A stretch of DNA of 60,849 nt from Acidobacteriota bacterium (GTDB lineage Bacteria > Acidobacteriota > Polarisedimenticolia > Gp22-AA2). The notes below the pieces were generated by a model. That model did not search any database. It worked only from the letters and a program-made list of their open reading frames with translations, and was not told the origin of the DNA. Both the position numbers and the translations under genes were made by a program. Shown here in pieces: positions 1,934-45,099 of this stretch (its first letter is position 1; every line of letters begins with the position of its first letter). The stretch is taken from the NCBI GenBank assembly GCA_041486695.1, contig JBGPLZ010000003.1, positions 1-60,849 on the forward strand, in the 5' to 3' direction.

Positions 1934-4054
1934 TCATCCCTCCGAGGCTCGGGCGGGGGCCTCGTGGCTCGTCCCGAGGACCTTCTGGACTGCATCGCGG
2001 AGGTCGACGACCCCGCATGGCTTGACAAGGACCAGGGCGATCCCCGCCCTGCGTACCTCTTGCGACGACTGCTCGACCCCCCAGCCGCTCAGCAGAATCA
2101 CCGGCACCGCCGAATTGATCCGCTTCACATTGGTCGCCACTTGATACCCGGACATGCCACCCATGCTCAGGTCGGTGATCACCAGGTCGAACCGGCTCTT
2201 CTCTAACAGGACAATGGCCTCTTCGCCGCTCGCGGCGGCGACGACCTCGTGCCCTACCAGGGTGAGCGCCTCCTGGTAGACCGAGCGGACGGGGTCCTCG
2301 TCATCCACCAGCAGAATGCGGACGCTCCTGGCTTCACCGGTTGTCACCGGTTCCGGGCTAGCGGGCTCGTCCGGGCTCGCGACATGAGGAGGCAGGCTGA
2401 TCCGGAAGGTCGTTCCGGAACCGGGCTTGCTGCGGACGGTGATGTTCCCCTTGTGGCGGGTGATGATGCCGTAGATGATGCTCGTTCCCAGGCCCTGTCC
2501 CGACTCCTTGGTGGTGAAGAACGGCTCGAACAGGCGCCGCTGGGTCTCCTCGTCCATTCCCATACCCTCGTCGGACACTTCGAGAACCACGGATCCCTCG
2601 TGTTCGTGGGTCTTGAAGCTGATGCGGCCGCCCTTGGGCATGGCCTCGACGGCATTGAAGATGAGGTTCTCGACCACCTGCGTCAGCTCGAGGAGGTTCC
2701 CGGTGACCCGGGGAACCTCGGCGAGGTCGAGATGGACGCTGATGCCGAGTCCCCGTGCCTCCGCCTCCTGCTTCCATCGGGGCTTGGTGATTTCGATCGC
2801 GTCACGTACGGCGGCGTTCAGGTCGAGCGCGGCGCGCGGCTCATCCTTCCGGGTACGGGTATAGTCCTGGATGCGCTTGATGGCCTGCCCGCCCTGCCGT
2901 GCGGACTTGATGATCGTCTCGAGGTCCGAGAGCGCCTTCACCCGATCGAACGGATCTTCCACGAGCCTGGCGTGGACGAACTCGGCCCTCCCGAGGATGA
3001 CGCTCAGGACATTGTTGAAATCGTGGGCCACCCCGGCCGCCATTTGACCGATGGCCTTGAGCCGCTCCGAGCGGACCAGCTGCGTCTGTGTGGCCTTCAG
3101 AGTTTCATAGGCTTTCTCGAGCTGGCCCGCACGCCTTGCCCCTTCGATGGCGACCGCGAGCTGGGTGCCCAGCGACGTCACGTGGGAGCTGTCAGCGTCG
3201 GTGAAGCCCTCTCCGTTGATCCGCTTGCCGGCCGCGAAGATGCCCAGCACCTTCCCGTCGGACTTGATCGGTGTGCAGAGCGCGATGGGGCCGGAGAGGA
3301 GGGCGTCGGCCGGGGGGAGCCCGGAGCCCTGTCCGCCGGCCTGGGCGTACTGTGTACCGTTCAGGACGAAGGGGATGCCCGTCCTGGCCACCGCTCCGCA
3401 GATCCCCACCCCGAGTCCGACTCTGGCGGCTGCAGGATTGCGTGTCCCTTCCGTCCTGCGGCAGGCGGATCGGAGCTCTCCCGCCTTGTCATCGAGGAGC
3501 AGAATGCAGGCGTCGTCGACGCCGAGCTCATCGGTCACCATGTCCATGAAGAAATCGAGGAGCTCCGTGTACGAGGAGACGTCGCCGTCGACAGACCCGC
3601 CGTCGGCGAGGGGGATGACGGTCGACAGCTCGTCGCTTCGCTCGTCCTGCTTCTGGAGCAGGGCGAGCCTCTTCTGGCCTAGGTTTCGCTTCTCGAGAGC
3701 GCGCTGCAGCGTCGTCCAGATCTCGTCGAGGTTCTCGAAAGGCTTCTGGAGGTAGCTGTACGCTCCTTCGCGGATCGCGCGCAGCGCCGTCTCGGCAGAA
3801 GCATGGCTGGTCATCATGACGACTTCGGTGTCGGGGGAGCGTTGCTTGATCTCCTTGAGCAGCTCGAGTCCGTTCCGACCCGGCAAGACGATGTCCAGCA
3901 GCGCTACGTCAGGTGCGAAATCGGCCAGCAGCGCAAGACCGTCTTCGGCGGTGGCCGCCTCCATCGCCTCGCAGCCGTTCCAGGCGATGACGTTGACGAG
4001 GATGTGCCGGATGGTTTCTTCGTCGTCGACGATGAGGATGCGTGGCTTGTCCAT
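1934..4054 (-). CDS. Hybrid sensor histidine kinase (REC-GAF-HisKA-HATPase-REC)
   Basis: ORF 1934..4138; the likelier start is [12 protein letters not shown] at 4054. N-terminal receiver ([16 protein letters not shown]), GAF-like middle, H-box [12 protein letters not shown], ATPase motifs [22 protein letters not shown]-terminal receiver ([17 protein letters not shown]). Confidence 0.9.
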
Positions 4055-12677: not shown

Positions 12678-13427
12678 ATGGCGACGACCGGGACGGCACT
12701 GGTGACCGGAAGCACGCGCGGCATCGGTCGGGCGATCGCGCTGCGCCTCGCCCGGGACGGGCATCGTGTGGCGATCAACTACGCCCGCGATCGGCAGGCC
12801 GGGGAACGGACGCTCTCCGAGATGCGCGCCATCCGGGACGACGCGCTGCTCCTGCAGGCGGATGTGGAAACCGCGGACGGATGCGTCCGGCTGCTCCGGG
12901 AGGCGGTCGAGCGCCTCGGGCGCCTCGACATCCTGGTGAACAACGTCGGTCCGTTCCAGGAGCGGCCCCTGGCGGAGACCGACGACGACACCTGGCGCCG
13001 GATGGTCGACGGCAACCTCGGCAGCGCCTTCTGGTGCGCCCGCGAAGCGCTTCCGGCCATGCGCGCCGCCGGCCGCGGCTGCATCATCAACATCGGGGCC
13101 CTCAACGCCGAGGTCTCGCCCGGCATGACGCATGAGGCGCCGGCTTACTTCGTCGCCAAATCGGCGCTGGCCATGATGACCAAGTCGATGGCCCGCTCCG
13201 AGGGACCGAACCGGATCCGGGTCAACGCCGTGAGCCCCGGCTTCATCGAGACCGAGAGCTACGCCGGGTGGGATCCGGCCGAACAGGAGCGTTGGCGGTC
13301 GCAGATCCCGCTGGGGCGCTTCGGCCGCCCGGATGAGGTTGCCGAGGCGGTCGCGTTCCTGGTGTCGGAGAAGGCGGCCTACATCTCGGGGACCGTGCTG
13401 CACGTCCACGGTGGGTTGTGGATCTGA
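12678..13427 (+). CDS. Short-chain dehydrogenase/reductase (SDR) embedded in the pterin-biosynthesis block
   Basis: ALVTGSTRGIGRAIA (TGxxxGxG), LVNNVG, YFVAK (YxxxK), RVNAVSPGFI, ISGTVLHVHGG. The spacing upstream of the catalytic Tyr is atypical (NIGALNAEVSPGMTHEAPAY). Confidence 0.85.
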   Translation: MATTGTALVTGSTRGIGRAIALRLARDGHRVAINYARDRQAGERTLSEMRAIRDDALLLQADVETADGCVRLLREAVERLGRLDILVNNVGPFQERPLAETDDDTWRRMVDGNLGSAFWCAREALPAMRAAGRGCIINIGALNAEVSPGMTHEAPAYFVAKSALAMMTKSMARSEGPNRIRVNAVSPGFIETESYAGWDPAEQERWRSQIPLGRFGRPDEVAEAVAFLVSEKAAYISGTVLHVHGGLWI

Positions 13428-14815
13428 CTCCGCGACCGCGCTATGCCTTCGTGACCGGGCAGCTGGCGAGCGCCGGGTTGACGGCGACGCTCGGGGATCT
13501 GTCGGAGCGCTTCTCCTGGAGCGTTGAGACGCTGCGCATCAAGGTGGCCTCCCTGATGACGACCGACTACGTGAAGACGACCCTGAAGCCGCCGGCCTGC
13601 GATGCCGTTTTCCTGCCGGGTCTCAGCCAGGCCGACACCGCGGCCCTGGAGCGCGCTTTCGGCGTGCCCTTTCGGAAGGGTCCCGCGGATCTTCGCGATC
13701 TTCCCGCGTTCTTTGGCGAGCCGGCGGAGGGGTACCGGCCGGACGGCCCGCATGACCTGACCATTCTCGCCGAGATCAACGACGTGCACCGCCTGGACGA
13801 TGCGGCGATCCTGTCGGCGGCGGAGCGCTACCGGGCCTCGGGCGCCGACGTCATCGATCTCGGCTGCTCTCCCGAGCACCCGATGCGCGACCTGGGACGC
13901 GTGGTGCGCCTTTTGAGGACGCGGGGCTTCCGGGTCAGCGCCGACACCTTCGACGAGCGCGAGGCGCTGTCGGCCGACGAGGCCGGCGCGGAGTTCCTCC
14001 TGAGCCTGAACGGGGAGAACATCGGCCTCGCCGCCCGGCTGCAGAGCGCCGTGCCGGTGGTGATCCCCGATCACGGAGCGGGGCTCCCGTCCCTGCTGCG
14101 CAATGTCGAGGAGGCGCGCTCGCGCGGCGTCCGCCGGCTGATCGTCGATGCGGTTCTCGACCCGATCCACTTCGGCTTCGCCGCCTCGATCAGGCGCTAC
14201 GCCGAGACTCGCGAAGCGCTTCCCGAGGCGGAGATCCTGATGGGCGTCGGCAATCTGACCGAGCTGACCGAGGCCGATTCGACCGGGGTGAACGCGGTTC
14301 TCGCGGGGCTCATGAGCGAGCTCGGTGTCCGCTTCGCCTTGACCACGGAGGTGATCCCCTGGGCGCGCGGCGCGGTGCGCGAGCTCGACTGCGGCCGCCG
14401 CATGATGCACTATGCCAGGAAGCGCGGGCTTTCCCCCAAGGGCTTCGACGCGCGCCTGGTGACCACGCGCGACCCGCGTCCGACGCGGCCCAGCGAGGCC
14501 GATCTCAGGGTGATGCACGAGCGGCTCACCGACCGGAACTTCCGCATCGACACCGACGGCGAGTCGGTCTTCGTGTTCAACTCCGAGCGCTTCGTCAAGG
14601 GCACCGACATCCAGGCGATCTTCCCGAAGCTGGGCGTGTCGGACGACGCCTCGCACGCCTTCTACCTGGGGCGCGAGCTGATGAAGGCCGACCTGGCGCG
14701 CCGCCTGGGCAAGAAGTACATCCAGGGAGAGCCGCTGCAATGGGGCTACCTGACCTACCTGGAGGAGGCGGGCGATCATGGGCGCCGGCGCCCGGCCGGG
14801 AAGGCCCGCCGATGA
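13418..14815 (+). CDS. Dihydropteroate-synthase-related (pterin-binding) protein of H4MPT biosynthesis, with an extra N-terminal domain
   Basis: 10-nt overlap with the SDR gene. GADVIDLGCSP, VVIPDHG, LMGVGNLTELTEADSTGVNAVL are DHPS-like barrel motifs. Cluster context supports the call. Confidence 0.8.
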   Translation: MDLTPRPRYAFVTGQLASAGLTATLGDLSERFSWSVETLRIKVASLMTTDYVKTTLKPPACDAVFLPGLSQADTAALERAFGVPFRKGPADLRDLPAFFGEPAEGYRPDGPHDLTILAEINDVHRLDDAAILSAAERYRASGADVIDLGCSPEHPMRDLGRVVRLLRTRGFRVSADTFDEREALSADEAGAEFLLSLNGENIGLAARLQSAVPVVIPDHGAGLPSLLRNVEEARSRGVRRLIVDAVLDPIHFGFAASIRRYAETREALPEAEILMGVGNLTELTEADSTGVNAVLAGLMSELGVRFALTTEVIPWARGAVRELDCGRRMMHYARKRGLSPKGFDARLVTTRDPRPTRPSEADLRVMHERLTDRNFRIDTDGESVFVFNSERFVKGTDIQAIFPKLGVSDDASHAFYLGRELMKADLARRLGKKYIQGEPLQWGYLTYLEEAGDHGRRRPAGKARR

Positions 14816-15189
14816 GCCCGATGCGGGACGACCGCCTGTCGCTGCGCGCCATTCTCTGCCGCGTGCACATCGGTGTGACCGAGGAGGAGCGCCGCGAGCG
14901 CCAGAAGATCGAGGTCGATCTCGATCTGCGTCTCGACCTGGCTCCGGCGGTGCGCACGGGCGATCTCCGCGCCACCATCGACTATCGTGAGGTGTGCGAC
15001 GCGGTGCGCGGCTTCCTGCAGAGCGGCACCTTCCGCCTGGTCGAGACGGCGGCCGGGGGCGTGGCCGATCTTGTGCTGCAGCGCTTCGCAGCCCGCCGGG
15101 TGACGGTCCGGCTGCGCAAGTTCGTCCTGCCGGACGTCGGCCACGTCGAAGTGGAGCTGGAGCGCGCCCGGGAGGAAGGGCCCCGGTGA
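14812..15189 (+). CDS. folB: Dihydroneopterin aldolase (FolB family)
   Basis: ATGA overlap with the upstream stop. LRAILCRVHIGVTEEERRERQKIEVDLDL and TIDYREV are typical FolB motifs. Confidence 0.85.
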   Translation: MSPMRDDRLSLRAILCRVHIGVTEEERRERQKIEVDLDLRLDLAPAVRTGDLRATIDYREVCDAVRGFLQSGTFRLVETAAGGVADLVLQRFAARRVTVRLRKFVLPDVGHVEVELERAREEGPR

Positions 15190-21239: not shown

Positions 21240-22823
21240 TCAGCTCGAGCGTGGCCGGGCGACGACCGGCTCGGGGTGGCGCAGCGCCTCCGCTTCGATC
21301 GCATAGTCGTCGAAGGGGACCGTATAGTACCGCTCGAAGTCGTCGCGCAGAGAGTTCTCGAACCTGGTTCTGGCCTGTCCCTCGAGCCGCGGGGGGACGA
21401 CGTGCAGCGTCCGGCCCTCGGGCTCTTCCACGATCGCCCCCTCGCGGGCGACGATGACACCCTGCTTGAGGACGACGACGGGCCGGGCGAACATCGCCTC
21501 GAGATCGCTGCACCGCTCATAGAGCACGATGTCGGCGTCGGCTCCAGGACCCAGGTGACCCTTGTGGTCGAGACCGAGCGCCCGGGCCGGCCCGGCCCGC
21601 GTGAGGATGGCGATCTCATCGAGGCTGTACTCCCGCTGGAGCGCCGCAATCTCGGTGCGCTCTTTCAGCTTCGGGTGGGCGCGGTCGATCGCCTCCCGGC
21701 GGGCCTTCTTGTCCATGAGGAGCCGCAGCAGGCCCGGATAGGCGGTGAAGGCGCCGCCGTTCGGGTGATCGGTGGTCAGGAAGACGCGCCAGGGGTCTTC
21801 GACGCGCAACATGATTTCGAGGCCGATCGCCCACTGCACCGCGCTCAGCAGATCGTCCTCCCGGTAGCGGTGCGGGACGATGCCGCAGCCGGTCTCGACC
21901 TCCACGTCGAGGTTGAGCCATTTCCGGCCGGTGGCGCGGTGCAGGCGATGCTGGGCGGGAGCGTCGGCGCTGAGCGTGATGGCGTCACCGAAGACGACCT
22001 GGCCGACGTCCACGGTGGCGCGCGGGTGGGCGTTGACCCAGGCGGCCAGCTCCCCGGCCCGGCTACGGAGGCCCTGGGCGGTCCGTCCGCCGTAGGCGTG
22101 GAACTGCAGATGCGTGAAGTGCGCCGGCGTGTCGCGCAGCAGGTCCATGGTCCGGAGCGCGATGCTCGCGCTGCCGGGCTGACCCAGCCCGTTCATGTGG
22201 AGATGGATCGGATGGGGAAGGCCGAGATCGACCGCCGCGCGGGCGAGCGCCATGACGATGGCTCGCTCCTCGTCCTCGCGCGGAGCGGCCCCCTGCTTCC
22301 AGGTTTCGACGCCCCCCGGGTTGGCGACCTTCACCGCGTAGGCGCGCGTCGCCTGGAGAATCCAGGCGACGAAGTCGCGCAGGCCGCCGGGTTCGCCGTC
22401 GCGCAGGAACCGCAAGGCGATCTCGTTGTTGCCGAGCAGGACGTAGATCCCTTTGTCGACGATCGGGATCTGCTCCAGGTCCTCGTGCGCGGCGCGGGCC
22501 GCGATCGGAGCCACCGCCGCCTCCATCAGCGTGGTGTACCCCATGGCGGCGTACCGGCGGCCGGTGTCGCGCAGGGTCGGCAGCAGGTGGCCGCCGTCCT
22601 CCGGACAGAGGAGCCGGGCCGCTCCGACCGACGATCCCGCGACGTGGGTGTGAAGATCGATCCCCCCCGGCATGACGATCAGGTTGGTCGCGTCGATCTC
22701 CGGAGCGCCGGCCGGCAGGGTAAGGACGATCCGCCCGTCGCGCACGCAGACGTCGCCGGCTTCACCGCGCCGCGCGTGCCGCGGGTCGAACACCCGCCCC
22801 CCCCGGATGCGCAGCATCGTCAC
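21240..22823 (-). CDS. fhcA: Formyltransferase/hydrolase complex subunit A (amidohydrolase; formylmethanofuran dehydrogenase subunit A-like)
   Basis: MPGGIDLHTHVAGS, HLHMNGLG, FTHLQFHAYGG, VFLTTDHPNGG. Confidence 0.9.
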   Translation of the reverse strand: MTMLRIRGGRVFDPRHARRGEAGDVCVRDGRIVLTLPAGAPEIDATNLIVMPGGIDLHTHVAGSSVGAARLLCPEDGGHLLPTLRDTGRRYAAMGYTTLMEAAVAPIAARAAHEDLEQIPIVDKGIYVLLGNNEIALRFLRDGEPGGLRDFVAWILQATRAYAVKVANPGGVETWKQGAAPREDEERAIVMALARAAVDLGLPHPIHLHMNGLGQPGSASIALRTMDLLRDTPAHFTHLQFHAYGGRTAQGLRSRAGELAAWVNAHPRATVDVGQVVFGDAITLSADAPAQHRLHRATGRKWLNLDVEVETGCGIVPHRYREDDLLSAVQWAIGLEIMLRVEDPWRVFLTTDHPNGGAFTAYPGLLRLLMDKKARREAIDRAHPKLKERTEIAALQREYSLDEIAILTRAGPARALGLDHKGHLGPGADADIVLYERCSDLEAMFARPVVVLKQGVIVAREGAIVEEPEGRTLHVVPPRLEGQARTRFENSLRDDFERYYTVPFDDYAIEAEALRHPEPVVARPRSS

Positions 22824-24091
22824 GGCGCCGTCCCCGGGCCGAGGCCGGCGCGCAGGATCTCAAGAACTTTTTCTTCGCTCGGCCGCGTCGAGCGCAGCGG
22901 CGCGCCCAGGACCACCGGCAGCCCGTCGGCGCGCCGGCCCGCGCCCGGCGCCGAAAGGCCGGGAAGAGCCGTCGGGATCAGCACGTCCGCCTCGTCCAGC
23001 CCCTCGGGGAGTCGGGGCCCGACGACGATCGTCTTCGGCCGTCGTCCTCGTTGCCGGGCCGAGGGCGACGCCGCCGGCACGGTGCGGGCGCCGATCAGGA
23101 GGCAGACGTCGGCATGTCCGTCGCCGATGAGCCGTGAGGCGCCGAACTCGGCCGGTCCGAAGCGCGCCGACCCCTCGGGAAGAAAACCGAGAGCGCGCGG
23201 CGCGCCCGCCGCGCCGGCCAGCGCCGCCATCGCCCCGGCCAGGTTTCCCCCGAGGAGTGGTCGGGCGACCCCGCGTCCGGTCAGGTTCAGGTCGCGCGCC
23301 AGGAGCGTCAGTGCCGCTGCGACGGCGAGCCCGAGCGGCCCGGTGGTCGCCGCGCCGTCCCAGAGGATGGCGGCGTAGCGGGCCCGGCGCAGCCGCTCCA
23401 CCACCGCCGCGAGCGCCGCGCGGGTCACGCCGCCGATGACCTCCCCCGCCGGGGCGCGCCCGCCCAGGAGCGCGCGCAGCGCCAGCAGGGCCGCGAGATC
23501 CCCGCCCGGTGCCACAGGGAAGATGAGGTCGGAGGCGGTCGCCGGCGGGCCCGCCGCAGCGGGGACGAGAATCGCGCCCCGTTCGCCGCCCTCGTCGAGA
23601 GGCGTGCCGCCCCGCCGCGCGAACAGGTGAGGGTGGGTCGGCCGCGGATCGCAACGCCAGAGGAGGAGCAGGTCGGCCCGGTTGCGGATCTCTCCGAATG
23701 TCGCCGACGGCAGACCGAACATCTGCAGCGCGGTCAGGTTGGCCTGCAGGGTGTCGCCGCCTTCCAGATCGAGCCCCGCGCCCAGGGTCGCGGCGATCCG
23801 GGCGGCGAGTCGCGCCGTACCGTTCGTGCTCCGCGCGAGGCCATAGAGAAAGGGGGCGCGCGCTTCGCGCAACAATCGGCTCGCGGCGCTGGTCGCCTCG
23901 TCGAAGGTCGTCTCCCGTCCGCCCTGGCGCGGAGCGCCCGCCGCGCGGCTCGCGGCCACGACCTCGTCGCGGCAGACCGGGCAGCCCCCCTCCGCCCGCA
24001 CCACCGCGCCTGCATCGATAGCGAGCGTCAGGGGCGCGCACGGCAGGCCGCAGAAGAAACCACGCAGACGCACCACATCCGTCATATCCAT
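22820..24091 (-). CDS. fhcB: Formyltransferase/hydrolase complex subunit B (formylmethanofuran dehydrogenase subunit B-like)
   Basis: Likely start MDMTDVV at 24091; the ORF-track extension to 24520 crosses the palindromic element. Cys-rich N-terminus FFCGLPCAP..GGCPVCRD. 4-nt overlap with the fhcA start. Confidence 0.8.
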   Translation of the reverse strand: MDMTDVVRLRGFFCGLPCAPLTLAIDAGAVVRAEGGCPVCRDEVVAASRAAGAPRQGGRETTFDEATSAASRLLREARAPFLYGLARSTNGTARLAARIAATLGAGLDLEGGDTLQANLTALQMFGLPSATFGEIRNRADLLLLWRCDPRPTHPHLFARRGGTPLDEGGERGAILVPAAAGPPATASDLIFPVAPGGDLAALLALRALLGGRAPAGEVIGGVTRAALAAVVERLRRARYAAILWDGAATTGPLGLAVAAALTLLARDLNLTGRGVARPLLGGNLAGAMAALAGAAGAPRALGFLPEGSARFGPAEFGASRLIGDGHADVCLLIGARTVPAASPSARQRGRRPKTIVVGPRLPEGLDEADVLIPTALPGLSAPGAGRRADGLPVVLGAPLRSTRPSEEKVLEILRAGLGPGTAP

Positions 24092-24326
24092 CGCTTGTAT
24101 CAGACGGGCCAGCGGGAGGTCAATGCGCTGCCGTGCGGAGGCTCCCCGGCGTGAGGCGCCGCGGCGACCGCGCCCGGCGCGGATGGGGACCGGGCGGCGT
24201 CCGGGAGACCGCCTGGTCCGCGCTGCACGGGTGGTGGGGTTGGCCGCGCCCTCGACACAGGCTTGCAGACTCTGGCCAAGCGCTGGCGCCGCGGTGTCGT
24301 TCGCAGCCTGGTTGGGCTGCCATGGG

Positions 24327-24487
24327 GTGAGGCGCAGAGCCCTGCCTTCGGCGGACCGTGCGAGACCGAGCGACCAGGGCCCCACCGCGCGCTTCACAGC
24401 GCGGTGGGTGGGAGCGAGGCGAGCCGAGGGGAGGCTCGCGCAGCGAGCCGGACCCGTGTCCGCCGAAGGCAGGGCTCTGCGCCTCAC
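24327..24487. repeat. 161-bp palindromic element E1: perfect 30-bp terminal inverted repeats around a 101-nt GC-rich core containing two internal hairpins
   Basis: Arm 24327-24356 GTGAGGCGCAGAGCCCTGCCTTCGGCGGAC is the exact reverse complement of 24458-24487. Inner hairpins: CCCACCGCGC/GCGCGGTGGG (24381-24408) and GCGAGCC/GGCTCGC (24419-24439). Lies between the divergent fhcB and MCP genes. Confidence 0.9.
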
Positions 24488-24607
24488 GCTGGGGAGGTCT
24501 CCGCAGCCCGCGGGCGGCATGGCGGTGGCGGAAAAGGGGACATATATTCAGATTTCGTCGGAGTCTGTCCGGTGTCCGGGGTCCCGGCGCCGGGGGGAGC
24601 GGGGACG

Positions 24608-26695
24608 ATGACGATCGACAGCAGCGCTCGCCGGGTCGGATCGGGTGGCGCCGCACCGTCCAACGGGCAATGGCAGACGCTCGGTGTGGGCGCCGTGCTC
24701 ACCGTTGTCGCGGCGCTCCTGATCTGGTTCTACACGATGGCGGTCTCCGAACGCTCGTTCGAGGCGCTGCGTCAGCGGGGGATCTCCCTGGCGCGGCTCA
24801 TGGCGCAGGTGAGCGAGGGGCCCCTGGCGGCGGCCGGCCGCAGCGATCCGCAGACGACTCTCGATCGCCTCTCCGGACAGGAGGATCTCGTCTACGCGGC
24901 GGTGGTTGACGGGGCCGGCACGGTCATCGGGGAGAGCGGACCCGGAGCCCGCGCCGCCGGAGCGCTCTTGATCGGGAGACCTCAGGGCGCCGCCCGGCTG
25001 CCCGCGACCCGATCGGATTGCCTCGTCGATCCGTACGGCGAGCGGCTCTATGTCTTCAGCGTTCCGGTCACCCGCCGCGGCGACGGCCGGGCCCCGTCGG
25101 TCGAGGAGCCCCCGATCGCCGACGGGGGACTCGGCCCGCGATCGGCCTCGGCGGCCCCCCGCATCCGTCCGTCGGCCGGGCCGCTGCTCGGTGAGGTGCG
25201 CGTCGTCCTCAGCGCGACGCGGATGGACCAGGCGGACGGGGCGCTTTTACTCCGGGGTCTCGGTTTCGGGGCGCTCCTGGTCCTCGGCGGGGTCCTGGCG
25301 AGCGGGACCATCTCCCGGCGGCTGCTGGCGCGTCCCGCGGCCGGCCTGCTCGAAGTGACGGGGCAGCTCGACGAAGCTGTCGAGGAGATCCGGGAGACCG
25401 CCGACCTTTTGGTCGAAGGGACGCTGCGACAACAGGAGTCGCTCCAGAAGATCGCCGCGTCGGCGGAGGCGGTCAGCCGGAGCCTGCGCGAGGTGGCGTC
25501 GGGGGCGGGAGGCCTCTCGACCTCCTCCGAGGAAACCTCGTCCTCGATCCTGTCGATGGTCGCGTCGATCGAGGAGGTCGCGGGACATGCCGACGGCCTG
25601 ACGATGTCGGTCAACGACACGTCGCAGACCATCGAAGAGATGGTCGCCTCGATCAAGGAGATCGACCGCAACGTCGAGCTTCTGAACCGCTTCGTGGCCG
25701 AGACGTCCGGGGCGATGGCCGACATGGGGCGCGCGCTGCAGCATGTTGAACGCAACGCCGCCGAGAGCAAGGAGATCTCCGAGCTCGTGGCCCAGAACGC
25801 CGACAAGGGGATGCGCGCCGTCGAGCTGACCATCGAGGGGATGGAAGCGATTCGCGGCAGCGTGGCCGATTCCGGCCAGGCGATCGCCTCGGTCGGTCGG
25901 AGGGGGCAGGAGATCGGGCTGATCCTCAGCGTCATCCAGGAGGTCACCGAGCAGACCAACCTCCTGGCGCTCAACGCCGCGATCATCGCCGCCCAGGCGG
26001 GCGAGCATGGCAGGGGATTCGCGGTGGTGGCCGACGAGATCCGCCAGCTCGCCGAACGCACCGCCACCAGCGCCAAGGAGATCGGCGCGCTGATCGCCTC
26101 GTTCCAGGCCGATACGACTCGCGCGGTGGCGTTGATGCAGGAGGGGTCGCGGCGCGTCGAAGCGGGCCGCGATCGATCGCAGGAGGCGGGCCGGGCGCTT
26201 AAAGAGATCCTGGAGTCGGCGCGCCGCTCCTCGGCGCAGGTCGGGGAGATCGCCTCGGCGACACGGGAGCAGGCGCACGGCCGGCGGGTCATCTCGGCCT
26301 CGGTCGAGAAGGTGTCGGAGATGGTCGGACACATCAAGCAGGCGACCGCCGAGCAGAGCCTCGGCTCCGAGCAGATCAACTCGGCGGTCGAGAACATGCG
26401 CGAGATGGCGGGACACGTGAAGCGGGCGACCGTCGAACAGGCGAAGGGCTCCCGAACCATCACGGAGGCGATCGAGAACGTCGCGGACCGGGTCGGCGCC
26501 ATCCACAAGTCGGCGACGGAGCAATCCGCGACCGCCGACCACATCATCAAGACGTTGTCCGCCTTCGCCTCTGTCACCTCCGCCAACCTGGTCGCCGCCA
26601 CCCGCATGCAGCAGGCGAACGAGGCGCTCCGCAGCCGCGCCCGATCGCTGCGCGGGGCGGTGGCCCGTCTCGGGGGCGCCGGCTTCGGGCACTGA
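24608..26695 (+). CDS. Methyl-accepting chemotaxis protein (two TM segments, extracytoplasmic sensor domain, long MA signalling domain)
   Basis: Likely start MTIDSS at 24608. TM1 [23 protein letters not shown]2 [19 protein letters not shown]. Signalling hairpin [35 protein letters not shown], then repeated EQ..GS..I..A.E heptad segments. Confidence 0.9.
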
Positions 26696-44039: not shown

Positions 44040-44515
44040 TGACGGCGAGGCGCGCGGACCGGGGCTGGCGCGGCATGACGCTCATCGAGCTTCTGGTCGT
44101 CGTGGCGGTTCTGCTGGTCCTCACGGCGGTGGTGGTGCCGACGGTGAAGTTCGCGGTCAAAAGGCAGAAGGAGCTCGAGCTGCGGCGCGCGCTGCGGGTG
44201 GTCCGCAAGGGGATCGACGACTACAAGAAGCTGTGCGACGCCGGAGTGATCCAGAAGACCGGCGTCGACTCCGAGTGCTACCCGGAGGAGCTCGAGGTGC
44301 TGGTGAAAGGGGTCGACAAGACCGGCGCCCTGGGGCAGAAGGTGAAATTCCTGAGAAAGATCCCGCTCGACCCGATGACCAACGGCTACGAGTGGGGGAC
44401 CCGCTCATACCAGGACGAGGCGGATTCCGATTCGTGGGGCCGGCAGAACGTCTACGACATCTATACCACCGCCGGGGGAAAGGCCCTCGACGGCACGAAA
44501 TACAAGGATTGGTGA
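44039..44515 (+). CDS. gspG: GspG-like major pseudopilin (prepilin-type N-terminus)
   Basis: Leader MTARRADRGWRG / MTLIELLVVVAVLLVL. C-terminal pattern IPLDPM..YDIYTTAGGKALDGTKYKDW. Confidence 0.85.
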   Translation: MTARRADRGWRGMTLIELLVVVAVLLVLTAVVVPTVKFAVKRQKELELRRALRVVRKGIDDYKKLCDAGVIQKTGVDSECYPEELEVLVKGVDKTGALGQKVKFLRKIPLDPMTNGYEWGTRSYQDEADSDSWGRQNVYDIYTTAGGKALDGTKYKDW

Positions 44516-45099
44516 TGGCTAGTGTCCTGAGTCGGAAATCCCTTGCCCATTTCGACGGCCCTCGACGGCCCCGGCTTCGTTGGGCCTCCTCGGAATGGGT
44601 CCACCATGCCTGCGTCGGCCCGCCTCGCCGGGCCCGCCGATGGCTCGCCGGACTGGGCAAGGGATTTCCGACTCAGGACACTTGGAGACGGCGCGGACGG
44701 GACCAGGCGGCACGGCGCGACGGCGGTTTCACGCTGATCGAGTTGTTGATCGTCATCACCATCATCGGCATCATCGCCGCCATCGCCGTCGGGCAATATC
44801 AGAAGACGCCGCTCAAGGCCAAGGAGGCGGTCCTCAAGGAGGATCTCTTCGTTTTGCGCGACGTCATCGACCAGTACTTCGCCGACAAGGGGAAGTATCC
44901 CGAAAGCCTGCAGGCGCTGGCCGACGACGGTTACATGCGGAAGATCCCGGTCGACCCGTTCACGGGATCCGATTCGACCTGGGAGACGGTGCAGGCGGAG
45001 GCCTCGGACGACGATAAGGATAGCGGCGGCGGGGTCATCGACGTCCACAGCGGCGCGACCGGGGCCGCGCTCGACGGGAGCCGCTACAGCGATTGGTGA
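44515..45099 (+). CDS. gspG: Second GspG-like pseudopilin; its leader-coding region carries the in-frame 162-bp element E2, so start and functionality are uncertain
   Basis: Mature part GFTLIELLIVITIIGIIAAIAV..IPVDPFTG..ALDGSRYSDW. The only in-frame ATG/GTG/TTG upstream of G/FTLIELL is the ATG at 44515, giving a 70-aa leader. Confidence 0.7.
   Translation: MASVLSRKSLAHFDGPRRPRLRWASSEWVHHACVGPPRRARRWLAGLGKGFPTQDTWRRRGRDQAARRDGGFTLIELLIVITIIGIIAAIAVGQYQKTPLKAKEAVLKEDLFVLRDVIDQYFADKGKYPESLQALADDGYMRKIPVDPFTGSDSTWETVQAEASDDDKDSGGGVIDVHSGATGAALDGSRYSDW
44521..44682. repeat. 162-bp palindromic element E2: perfect 29-bp terminal inverted repeats around a 104-nt GC-rich core, inserted in frame in a pseudopilin leader
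   Basis: 44521-44549 AGTGTCCTGAGTCGGAAATCCCTTGCCCA is the exact reverse complement of 44654-44682. The length is 54 codons with no stop in the pilin frame. Confidence 0.9.

Follow-up and report, generated by a model that had tools for sequence, protein, structure and literature searches.

A palindrome between divergent fhcB-like and chemotaxis receptor genes belongs to a previously uncatalogued, lineage-specific repeat family of Acidobacteriota

Most of what is known about structured intergenic repeats (REP, ERIC and Correia elements, for example) comes from cultured Proteobacteria, and what these repeats do is still debated. REPs cluster in the 3' regions of genes and operons. Integron attC sites are imperfect palindromes of ~60-140 nt that conserve structure over arm sequence and are used as a folded single strand, in a strand-specific way. 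REPs measure 20-40 bp, carry a conserved GTAG/CGTC tag and have arms that form their conserved part (PMC3733652). Correia elements of Neisseria and ERIC/IRU repeats can adjoin or supply promoters (for Correia promoters, see the papers cited in PMC11602168).

We analyzed a 60,849-nt stretch of an Acidobacteriota contig (JBGPLZ010000003.1, assembly GCA_041486695.1; hereafter the window) that contains a palindrome at 24327-24487, one member of a repeat family. Like REP/BIME and REPIN (RAYT) repeats, the members of this family are many-copy, intergenic, non-coding hairpins with no target-site duplication and long persistence in a lineage. In REPs and REPINs it is probably the folded single strand that is recognized, as we propose for the family. 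The family differs from REPs in its unit of 160-210 nt, in arms that drift around a conserved three-way core and start with GTGAG or CTGAG instead of carrying a GTAG/CGTC tag, and in favoring promoter-bearing regions. Correia and ERIC/IRU (Enterobacteria) repeats are likewise intergenic, palindromic and many-copy, 100-160 bp in size with long hairpins, but they have no sequence similarity to the family. Correia elements carry a TA duplication and terminal repeats of 26 bp that are conserved, whereas the family has variable arms, no duplication was seen, and its adjacent promoter does not belong to the repeat. Classical DDE-type MITEs share with the family small size, lack of coding capacity, multiple copies, terminal inverted repeats and near-identical copies at unrelated sites. 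However, the terminal repeats of the family are not its conserved part (mean identity among copies 0.68 in the arms and 0.85 in the core), and it shows no target-site duplication. attC sites have a variable center, conserved outer R/L boxes and a setting in cassette arrays beside intI, whereas the family has a conserved center and is scattered before housekeeping genes. This family from an uncultured acidobacterial class reverses the usual pattern, with drifting arms and a conserved three-way core.

The palindrome is a real feature and not a product of chance. Its perfect 30-bp arms, 101-nt core and two internal hairpins of 10 and 7 bp were all found as the preliminary description of this DNA had given them. 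The arms, GTGAGGCGCAGAGCCCTGCCTTCGGCGGAC (24327-24356) and its exact 30-nt reverse complement at 24458-24487, are each unique in the window with up to 3 mismatches allowed, and 100 shuffles contained no arm match. A whole-window scan for long near-perfect inverted repeats with a short spacer returned only two, at 24327-24487 and 44521-44682; the window has a G+C content of 69.5%. Compared with shuffled sequences, the fold of the window copy has a z-score of -10.1 as RNA and -8.2 as DNA. Hairpin 1 pairs 24381-24390 with 24399-24408 around an 8-nt loop. Hairpin 2 (GGCTCGC-GCA-GCGAGCC) pairs 24433-24439 with 24443-24449, and the comparative data favor this pairing over an alternative one with 24419-24425. 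A weaker inverted repeat extends outward from the arms (68-nt arms, 74% complementary); it corresponds to an outer stem extension that other family members have kept better. The parts of the window copy are as follows.

24300..24326, + strand: left outer extension, degenerate in the window copy (family consensus ATGAGG..GGATCCCCGG)
24327..24356, + strand: left arm of the outer stem, 30 nt, perfectly complementary to 24458-24487 and beginning with the family-typical GTGAGGCGC
24357..24374, + strand: conserved 5' junction strand CGTGCGAGACCGAGCGAC (GAG-N3-GAG), nearly invariant in alignments A1 and A2 and outside the search word
24381..24408, + strand: hairpin 1, CCCACCGCGC / GCGCGGTGGG, 10 bp, with a variable 8-nt loop at 24391-24398
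24414..24434, + strand: near-invariant purine motif GCGAGGCGAGCCGAGGGGAGG, with GAG every 5 nt, used as search word
24433..24449, + strand: hairpin 2, GGCTCGC-GCA-GCGAGCC, 7 bp, with a GNA-type triloop
24448..24457, + strand: conserved 3' junction strand CCGGACCCGT, invariant or nearly so in A2 and outside the search word
24458..24487, + strand: right arm of the outer stem, perfectly complementary to the left arm
24488..24506, + strand: right outer extension GCTGGGGAGGTCTCCGCAG, with which the copied unit ends (family consensus CnGGGGAnnCnTCAG)

Searches for further copies found about 70, so the possibility, raised when the palindrome was first described, that no other copy exists anywhere fails. 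An exact 23-nt word from the core occurs at 14 loci in species-representative GTDB genomes. All of these are in Acidobacteriota / Candidatus Polarisedimenticolia MAGs except one, on a 69%-GC contig filed under Patescibacteria. An exact 21-nt core word matched JGI metagenomes at 61 loci, including a few chance matches within coding sequence. We built a covariance model (R1) from 38 copies. R1 matches the window at 24327-24487 with 156.8 bits and gives 70 matches in 318 kb of loci, some of them without the search word. When local BLAST and R1 were used to look for a second copy in the window, they gave only a weak match (26.9 bits) at 14801-14955, which has none of the family motifs and was treated as spurious. 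The preliminary description had looked to both a covariance model and Rfam: the model recovered many homologous copies, and Rfam held no match to the element. Rfam 15 returned nothing at gathering score across the whole window, and at E<=10 over 24200-24620 only a 12.5-bit chance match outside the element. The core word had no match in viral contigs, and in the literature on Acidobacteriota MITEs, on Polarisedimenticolia and on REP, cruciform and promoter elements we found no account of this repeat family. The family is therefore a previously uncatalogued, lineage-specific, non-coding one, with ~70 copies in Acidobacteriota MAGs and in soil and sediment metagenomes.

Sediment metagenomes contain the window locus nearly identically. 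Contig depth in six runs (X1-X5, X7) was 270-580 over 24358-24451 and 3-9 in the flanks, and in four sediment metagenomes the core was 50-100x deeper than the flanks. The depth declines gradually through the arms and reaches background at ~24326 and ~24496, and many loose contig ends run from the core into unrelated flanks. We also observed that the repeat breaks metagenome assemblies of its lineage, with many copies lying at contig ends; R1 can flag such assembly-breaking copies.

The outer stem of the family is 25-32 bp long and is usually extended outward past an internal loop (consensus ATGAGG..GGATCCCCGG on the left and CnGGGGAnnCCTCAG on the right), which brings it to 30-50 bp. The unit as a whole measures ~160-210 nt, with a full form of ~210 nt. 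The 5' part of the core reads CGTGCGAGACCGAGCGAC-GGGG and is followed by hairpin 1 (stem CCCCRCCGCGCG, loop of free sequence). The 3' part reads yGGrGCGAGGCGAGCCGAGGGGAGG, followed by hairpin 2 (GGnTCGC-GCA-GCGAnCC) and then GGACCCGT. There are two core variants, and in the variant with GACCTCGCGCC that segment can pair with CGCGAGG. The core is a conserved three-way junction of two short hairpins and conserved, GAG-rich single strands.

Conservation is concentrated in this core. Compared with the other copies, the window copy has an identity of 0.65 in the arms and 0.87 in the core. The stem of hairpin 1 is kept while its loop is randomized among copies, and loop variants are also present in metagenome contigs. 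Over 24397-24434, those contigs contained no variant at 3% or above, except rare ones at 24410 and 24413. The near-invariance of GCGAGGCGAGCCGAGGGGAGG is partly ascertained, as most copies were found with that word; copies found by R1 alone carry 1-3 changes in it. The junction strands CGTGCGAGACC and CCGGACCCGT lie outside the search word, yet they vary little or not at all.

The stems are maintained by paired changes. Across 38-40 copies in alignment A2, 95.8% of stem cells were paired, compared with 87.8% in column shuffles (0 of 500 reached 95.8%) and 37-46% with slid partners. The covariation score was 0.245, against 0.097 for shuffled and 0.03-0.045 for slid columns. Double-sided changes were found in 25 pairs of A2 and in 26 of 56 RNAalifold pairs, counts that refer to sequences and not to independent events, with some variants common to the copies of one genome, such as GTGAAG...CTTCAC in one assembly. 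Compensatory changes, for which the preliminary description had suggested aligning the copies, proved abundant and affect 21 of the 23 outer-stem pairs. One pair of hairpin 2 occurs as GC in 17 copies, CG in 12, UA in 5 and AU in 1. Orthologous copies before sat (L028/L066), gap (L049/L017) and rplU (L051/L018) have compensated arm changes and near-identical cores, and these compensated differences give independent support for selected pairing.

Arm mismatches were counted over the 25 scored pairs. Two of the 40 copies had none and most had 1-3, which places the window copy, with its perfect arms, at the well-paired end of the family range and gives no sign of a special recent event. The earlier proposal that perfect arms mean either very recent formation or selection on the hairpin thus stands in one part, because pairing is selected across copies, and falls in the other.

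The two strands are not equivalent. The + strand stems contain 85 G.T/U pairs and 17 A.C pairs; all A.C pairs are singletons, whereas several G.T pairs have been passed on to many copies. In 37 of 38 copies the + strand gives a more stable fold than the complement, a difference that stems in part from the G-rich core. This asymmetry points to a single-stranded form of the + strand, either RNA or DNA. None of 42 copies has a sigma-70-like promoter aimed into the element within 200 nt, and most copies, including that of the window, lie downstream of a divergently transcribed gene. Family members and their flanks are present in contigs of one soil metatranscriptome, an oligo-dT library whose contigs are undirected, so that the strand is unreadable and the source may be DNA. 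The window locus had no match in any RNA run.

Near-identical copies at unrelated sites indicate that the unit is copied within genomes. Three copies on three contigs of one assembly (L019, L030 and L073) have unrelated flanks and are 95-98% identical in arms and core, which argues that the unit was copied recently or was homogenized. The left limit of similarity between such copies is ATGAGG and the right limit is CTTCAG. As judged by eye at fuzzy boundaries, the ends of the copies inspected, L019, L030 and L073 included, have no abutting direct repeat that could be a target-site duplication. Some copies are truncated, some lie in clusters, and some form pairs of opposite orientation with 70-400 nt between them. 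The copies at the orthologous sat, gap and rplU sites are, by comparison, old; the proteins neighboring orthologous copies are only ~75-90% identical between genomes.

Sigma-70 consensus matches of at least 9/12 within 150 nt were sought in the 55 copies whose 3' flank measures 100 nt or more. An outward match beyond the 3' end was present in 17 of these, and in 12 the -35 lies at +23 to +30 past the model end; where such copies have an outer extension, this is 10-12 nt past it. The controls gave 0.37 copies in shuffles and 1 with inward promoters; the 5' side gave 6 of 47, with three at a single locus. Two copies that lack the outer extension have the -35 only 4-6 nt past the arm, which shows that the distance from core to promoter can vary. 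The spacers between copy and promoter are unrelated from copy to copy, and the promoter of the chemotaxis gene in the window also exists without the element (see below); the repeat therefore does not include the adjacent promoter.

Downstream of the copies lie housekeeping genes that are unrelated to each other, among them those for ATP sulfurylase, RmuC, GAPDH, chorismate synthase, UvrA, L21 and HU. By a rough and noisy ORF/GC3 heuristic, ~70% of upstream and ~70% of downstream neighbors are transcribed away from the element, and ~30% of copies lie 0-50 nt from the stop codon of a convergent gene. The family thus favors promoter-bearing intergenic DNA, hard against functional boundaries. Promoter adjacency fits either functional coupling or tolerated insertion with later loss of neutral spacer.

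The window copy sits in a 516-bp intergenic region (24092-24607) with divergent genes on either side. The features of this locus are listed below.

22820..24091, - strand: fhcB-like gene (formylmethanofuran dehydrogenase subunit B-like, 423 aa; homologues so named by JGI)
24094..24123, - strand: probable fhcB promoter, TTGACC (24123-24118), N18, TACAAG (24099-24094)
24133..24159, - strand: relic of a second copy in the opposite orientation, made up of arm end and extension (GCGCCTCACGCCGGGGAGCCTCCGCAC)
24519..24548, + strand: probable promoter of the methyl-accepting chemotaxis protein (MCP) gene, weak -35 ATGGCG (24519-24524), 18-nt spacer, -10 TATATT (24543-24548)
24608..26695, + strand: MCP gene, 695 aa (Pfam MCPsignal, 5e-52)

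On the 3' side of the fhcB-like gene, Pfam identified an amidohydrolase (fhcA-like) gene and then an FTR (fhcD-like) formyltransferase gene. The MCP orthologue in locus L079 has the same length as that of the window. The right arm is followed by the 19-nt, moderately conserved extension to 24506, then by 12 nt, and then by the MCP -35. We read 24519-24548 as the MCP promoter because its -35-like/-10 stretch is kept in a distant orthologous locus, L078, which itself has no element; a generic promoter scan of 24000-24700 gave nothing above threshold, the MCP promoter site included. On this reading, the window copy would stand before the MCP gene in the -35 geometry of the family.

The relic on the fhcB side is identical to 24479-24506 at 24 of 27 positions. 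The probable fhcB promoter begins 9 nt past it, ends 2 nt ahead of the first ATG and is conserved in L076. L076, the closest fhcB orthologue (75% identity), has a full copy (128.5 bits) at the position of the relic, oriented towards fhcB, and its contig terminates in the beginning of another arm. L078 and L079 (50% identity) keep the fhcB-MCP synteny and the MCP -10 and have no copy. Other arm-end sites were sought in the window with up to 3 mismatches, and only the element itself was found. In contigs of four runs, no joint that skips the element was found that would mark an empty-site allele in near-identical strains. The suggestion that the palindrome, by its position, could bear on both divergent promoters agrees with this arrangement as far as proximity goes. 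Promoter proximity is a property of the family; the MCP promoter, with its weak -35 and good -10, begins 12 nt past the window copy, and a relic arm end stands before the fhcB promoter. We also considered an intrinsic terminator and rejected it, as no T-run follows the stem, the element is absent from the terminator scan and the upstream gene is divergent.

The evidence tips slightly towards the window palindrome being a copy of a non-autonomous, structure-constrained dispersed repeat of REP/MITE type. A putative enzyme acting in trans would recognize the folded top (+) strand through the conserved junction and not through the arm sequence. Propagation would then resemble that of hairpin-dependent single-strand systems such as REPIN/RAYT, IS200/IS605-type ends and attC. 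Recognition of a folded strand would leave the arms free to drift as long as they pair, would produce no duplication and would make only one strand matter. The unit would survive where it is harmless, just upstream of promoters or just past stop codons, and the window copy, which separates the MCP promoter from the divergent fhcB promoter, may be a passive spacer or insulator. Several observations fit this explanation less well. Transposition is deduced from near-identical copies at unrelated sites, which gene conversion could mimic, and neither a target-site duplication nor a conserved target word was seen. The conservation of the core at orthologous sites exceeds the need of a selfish element and fits a host function, and the tight -35 spacing may mean functional coupling and not a tolerated position. 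The strand asymmetry implies a single-stranded + form, yet no promoter points into the element in the 42 copies.

Some of these observations would be accounted for by a host cis-regulatory module, which we regard as unlikely though the strongest competitor. Here a cruciform, or a hairpin that negative supercoiling extrudes ahead of active promoters, would be bound by a host protein at the conserved junction and would set, insulate or buffer the adjacent sigma-70 promoter, for instance where genes diverge. The near-constant position of the -35 past the 3' end in 12 copies is oriented, being rare on the 5' side, and copies are conserved at the orthologous promoters of rplU, gap and sat. In line with such a role, the ~70% of neighbors that face away on either side mark promoter-bearing regions, divergent copy pairs each aim at their own gene (fhcB and MCP among them), and the relic before fhcB retains exactly the promoter-proximal end. 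However, a cruciform folds both strands and gives no reason for one of them to be richer in G.T than in A.C pairs. The core geometry is not fixed, given the -35 only 4-6 nt past the arm in copies without the extension; ~30% of copies border on a convergent gene's stop codon and lack a promoter; the MCP promoter is present in L078 without the element; and compaction of a neutral spacer could give equal adjacency. A structured RNA seems to us rather improbable. The + strand would then be transcribed, and its three-way junction, with the GAG repeats, would either be bound by a protein or serve as a signal for processing or termination that keeps read-through from the downstream promoter. Such an RNA would explain the compensatory changes, the G-U pairs tolerated on the + strand only, the more stable + strand fold and the members found with their flanks in the soil metatranscriptome. 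The periodic GAG resembles the triplets bound by ring-shaped RNA-binding proteins such as TRAP, a resemblance only. Yet nothing obvious transcribes the + strand: a sigma-70-like promoter pointing in within 200 nt is found in 0 of 42 copies, and the gene upstream of most copies is transcribed divergently. The oligo-dT metatranscriptome has undirected contigs and may contain DNA, no U-tract follows the stem, and Rfam gave no match. We are similarly doubtful of the idea that the family is no selfish repeat but a genome-wide promoter-upstream control element of a new type, in which an oligomeric host protein would read the periodic GAG triplets of a DNA or RNA junction on the + strand only, at about -48 of strong housekeeping sigma-70 promoters. 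If this were true, the element would tie promoter activity to either supercoiling or a global signal within this uncultured Acidobacteriota class.

Two further explanations start from the window copy itself. Perfect inverted repeats around a short segment between divergent genes recall an inverton, in which the 30-bp repeats would serve as recombination sites that flip the 101-nt core and switch the divergent genes, and the copy in L076 is indeed in the opposite orientation. However, that copy lies where the window has its relic and is not the window copy in flipped form. Contigs of the six runs (X1-X5, X7), which can drop rare variants, contained no strand-changing joints; the core has no promoter, no recombinase gene is adjacent, and the orientation of the core to the adjacent promoter is nearly constant across the family. 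Inversion is thus very improbable. It is harder still to credit a one-off local inverted duplication or a retron-like msr/msd unit. The window holds a single full copy, and perfect arms and a length of ~160 nt recall the a1/a2 repeats of retrons. Against this, there are ~70 homologous copies elsewhere, and the adjacent genes are the fhcB-like and MCP genes, with no reverse transcriptase gene among them.

The combination of recent copying, long persistence at orthologous promoters and a measurable, oriented association with the upstream edge of sigma-70 promoters makes the family a clean test system. It bears on whether such repeats are parasites, domesticated regulators or both, and on what recognizes a folded single strand of chromosomal DNA. 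It also bears on whether large promoter-upstream palindromes insulate divergent genes from each other.

The element at 44521-44682 had been described as having the same architecture as the palindrome at 24327. The sizes given, 161 bp for the palindrome at 24327 and 162 bp for that at 44521, are correct. However, the two are not homologous and share only hairpin shape and length. R1 does not match 44521-44682 at E<=10, and the alignment score between the two elements is 60, with a mean of 41 and a maximum of 63 for shuffles. The 44521 element (162 bp, 29-30-nt perfect arms, GC-rich interior) has single-copy depth and folds as one long imperfect hairpin. It is an open, in-frame insertion of 54 codons directly after the ATGGC of a gspG-like pseudopilin gene. 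The closest gspG-like orthologues (89% and 87% identity) have 140 aa, compared with 194 in the window, and the site is empty in L080. Over 58 nt it is ~90% identical to sequence beside a copy of the first family in another MAG (L004), and a short variant with the same outer 17 nt is present in run X2. The 44521 element therefore belongs to a repeat family of its own, the second one in the window.

The conserved core of family 1, the dispersed hairpin repeat of Acidobacteriota, carries a purine motif with GAG every 5 nt (GCGAG GCGAG CCGAG GGGAG G at 24414-24434 in the window copy). A GAG-N3-GAG segment (24357-24374) lies 5' of hairpin 1. The core occurs in two variants; in one of these, base pairing joins the 5' segment to the first GAG repeat. 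The covariance model also gave a weak match of 26.9 bits (rough E of 0.003) at 14801-14955, where the ORF 13337-14815 reaches its stop codon. This segment is hairpin-shaped but has none of the family motifs, and the match is probably spurious.

On the fhcB side of the intergenic region, two further features were identified:

24133-24159, minus strand: relic of a family-1 copy in the opposite orientation, comprising arm end and extension, 24/27 identical to 24479-24506
24083-24123, minus strand: fhcB promoter TTGACC-N18-TACAAG and start region

The relic is positioned in front of the fhcB promoter, and the orthologous fhcB locus (L076) has a full family-1 copy at its position. The mRNA from which fhcB is translated is probably leaderless, because the predicted promoter ends 2 nt upstream of the first ATG and 8 nt upstream of the second. 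This promoter and start-codon arrangement is kept in the orthologous locus.

The second palindrome of the window lies within a protein-coding gene:

44515-45099, plus strand: gspG-like pseudopilin gene, containing the palindrome 44521-44682

The palindrome adds 54 codons without stops, in frame and directly 3' of ATGGC, and thereby lengthens the prepilin leader. The product has 194 aa, compared with 140 aa in its closest orthologues (89% and 87% identity), and locus L080 has an empty site at this position. The insertion is reminiscent of the palindromic elements inserted in frame in Rickettsia. About 58 nt of the element (arm and interior) recur at ~90% identity in another Acidobacteriota MAG (L004:808-867, minus strand), adjoining a family-1 copy. 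A short variant in one metagenome (run X2, joint 44537/44666) combines the outer 17 nt of both arms with a different 21-nt centre. This recurrence and the short variant place the element in a second repeat family.

Family-1 copies very often coincide with contig ends, and this was seen at many loci (e.g. L002, L011, L013, L015, L016, L021, L023-L026, L057, and L064). Evidently, short-read assemblies of its host genomes break at the repeat. At L044:2004-2730, two copies and the 417 nt that separate them form part of a perfect ~730-bp inverted duplication. The structure represents a large palindrome or else an artefact of the assembly. At L020, a UPF0236 (ISKra4-like transposase) gene ends directly next to a copy (2006-2168, minus strand), its 3' end adjoining the repeat; this one instance does not tie the gene to the family. 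A 185-kb contig of ~69% GC filed as 'Patescibacteria group' (L008, DASRAN010000078.1) is probably Acidobacteriota sequence in the wrong bin. It has two family-1 copies, both adjoining a large outer-membrane receptor-like gene.
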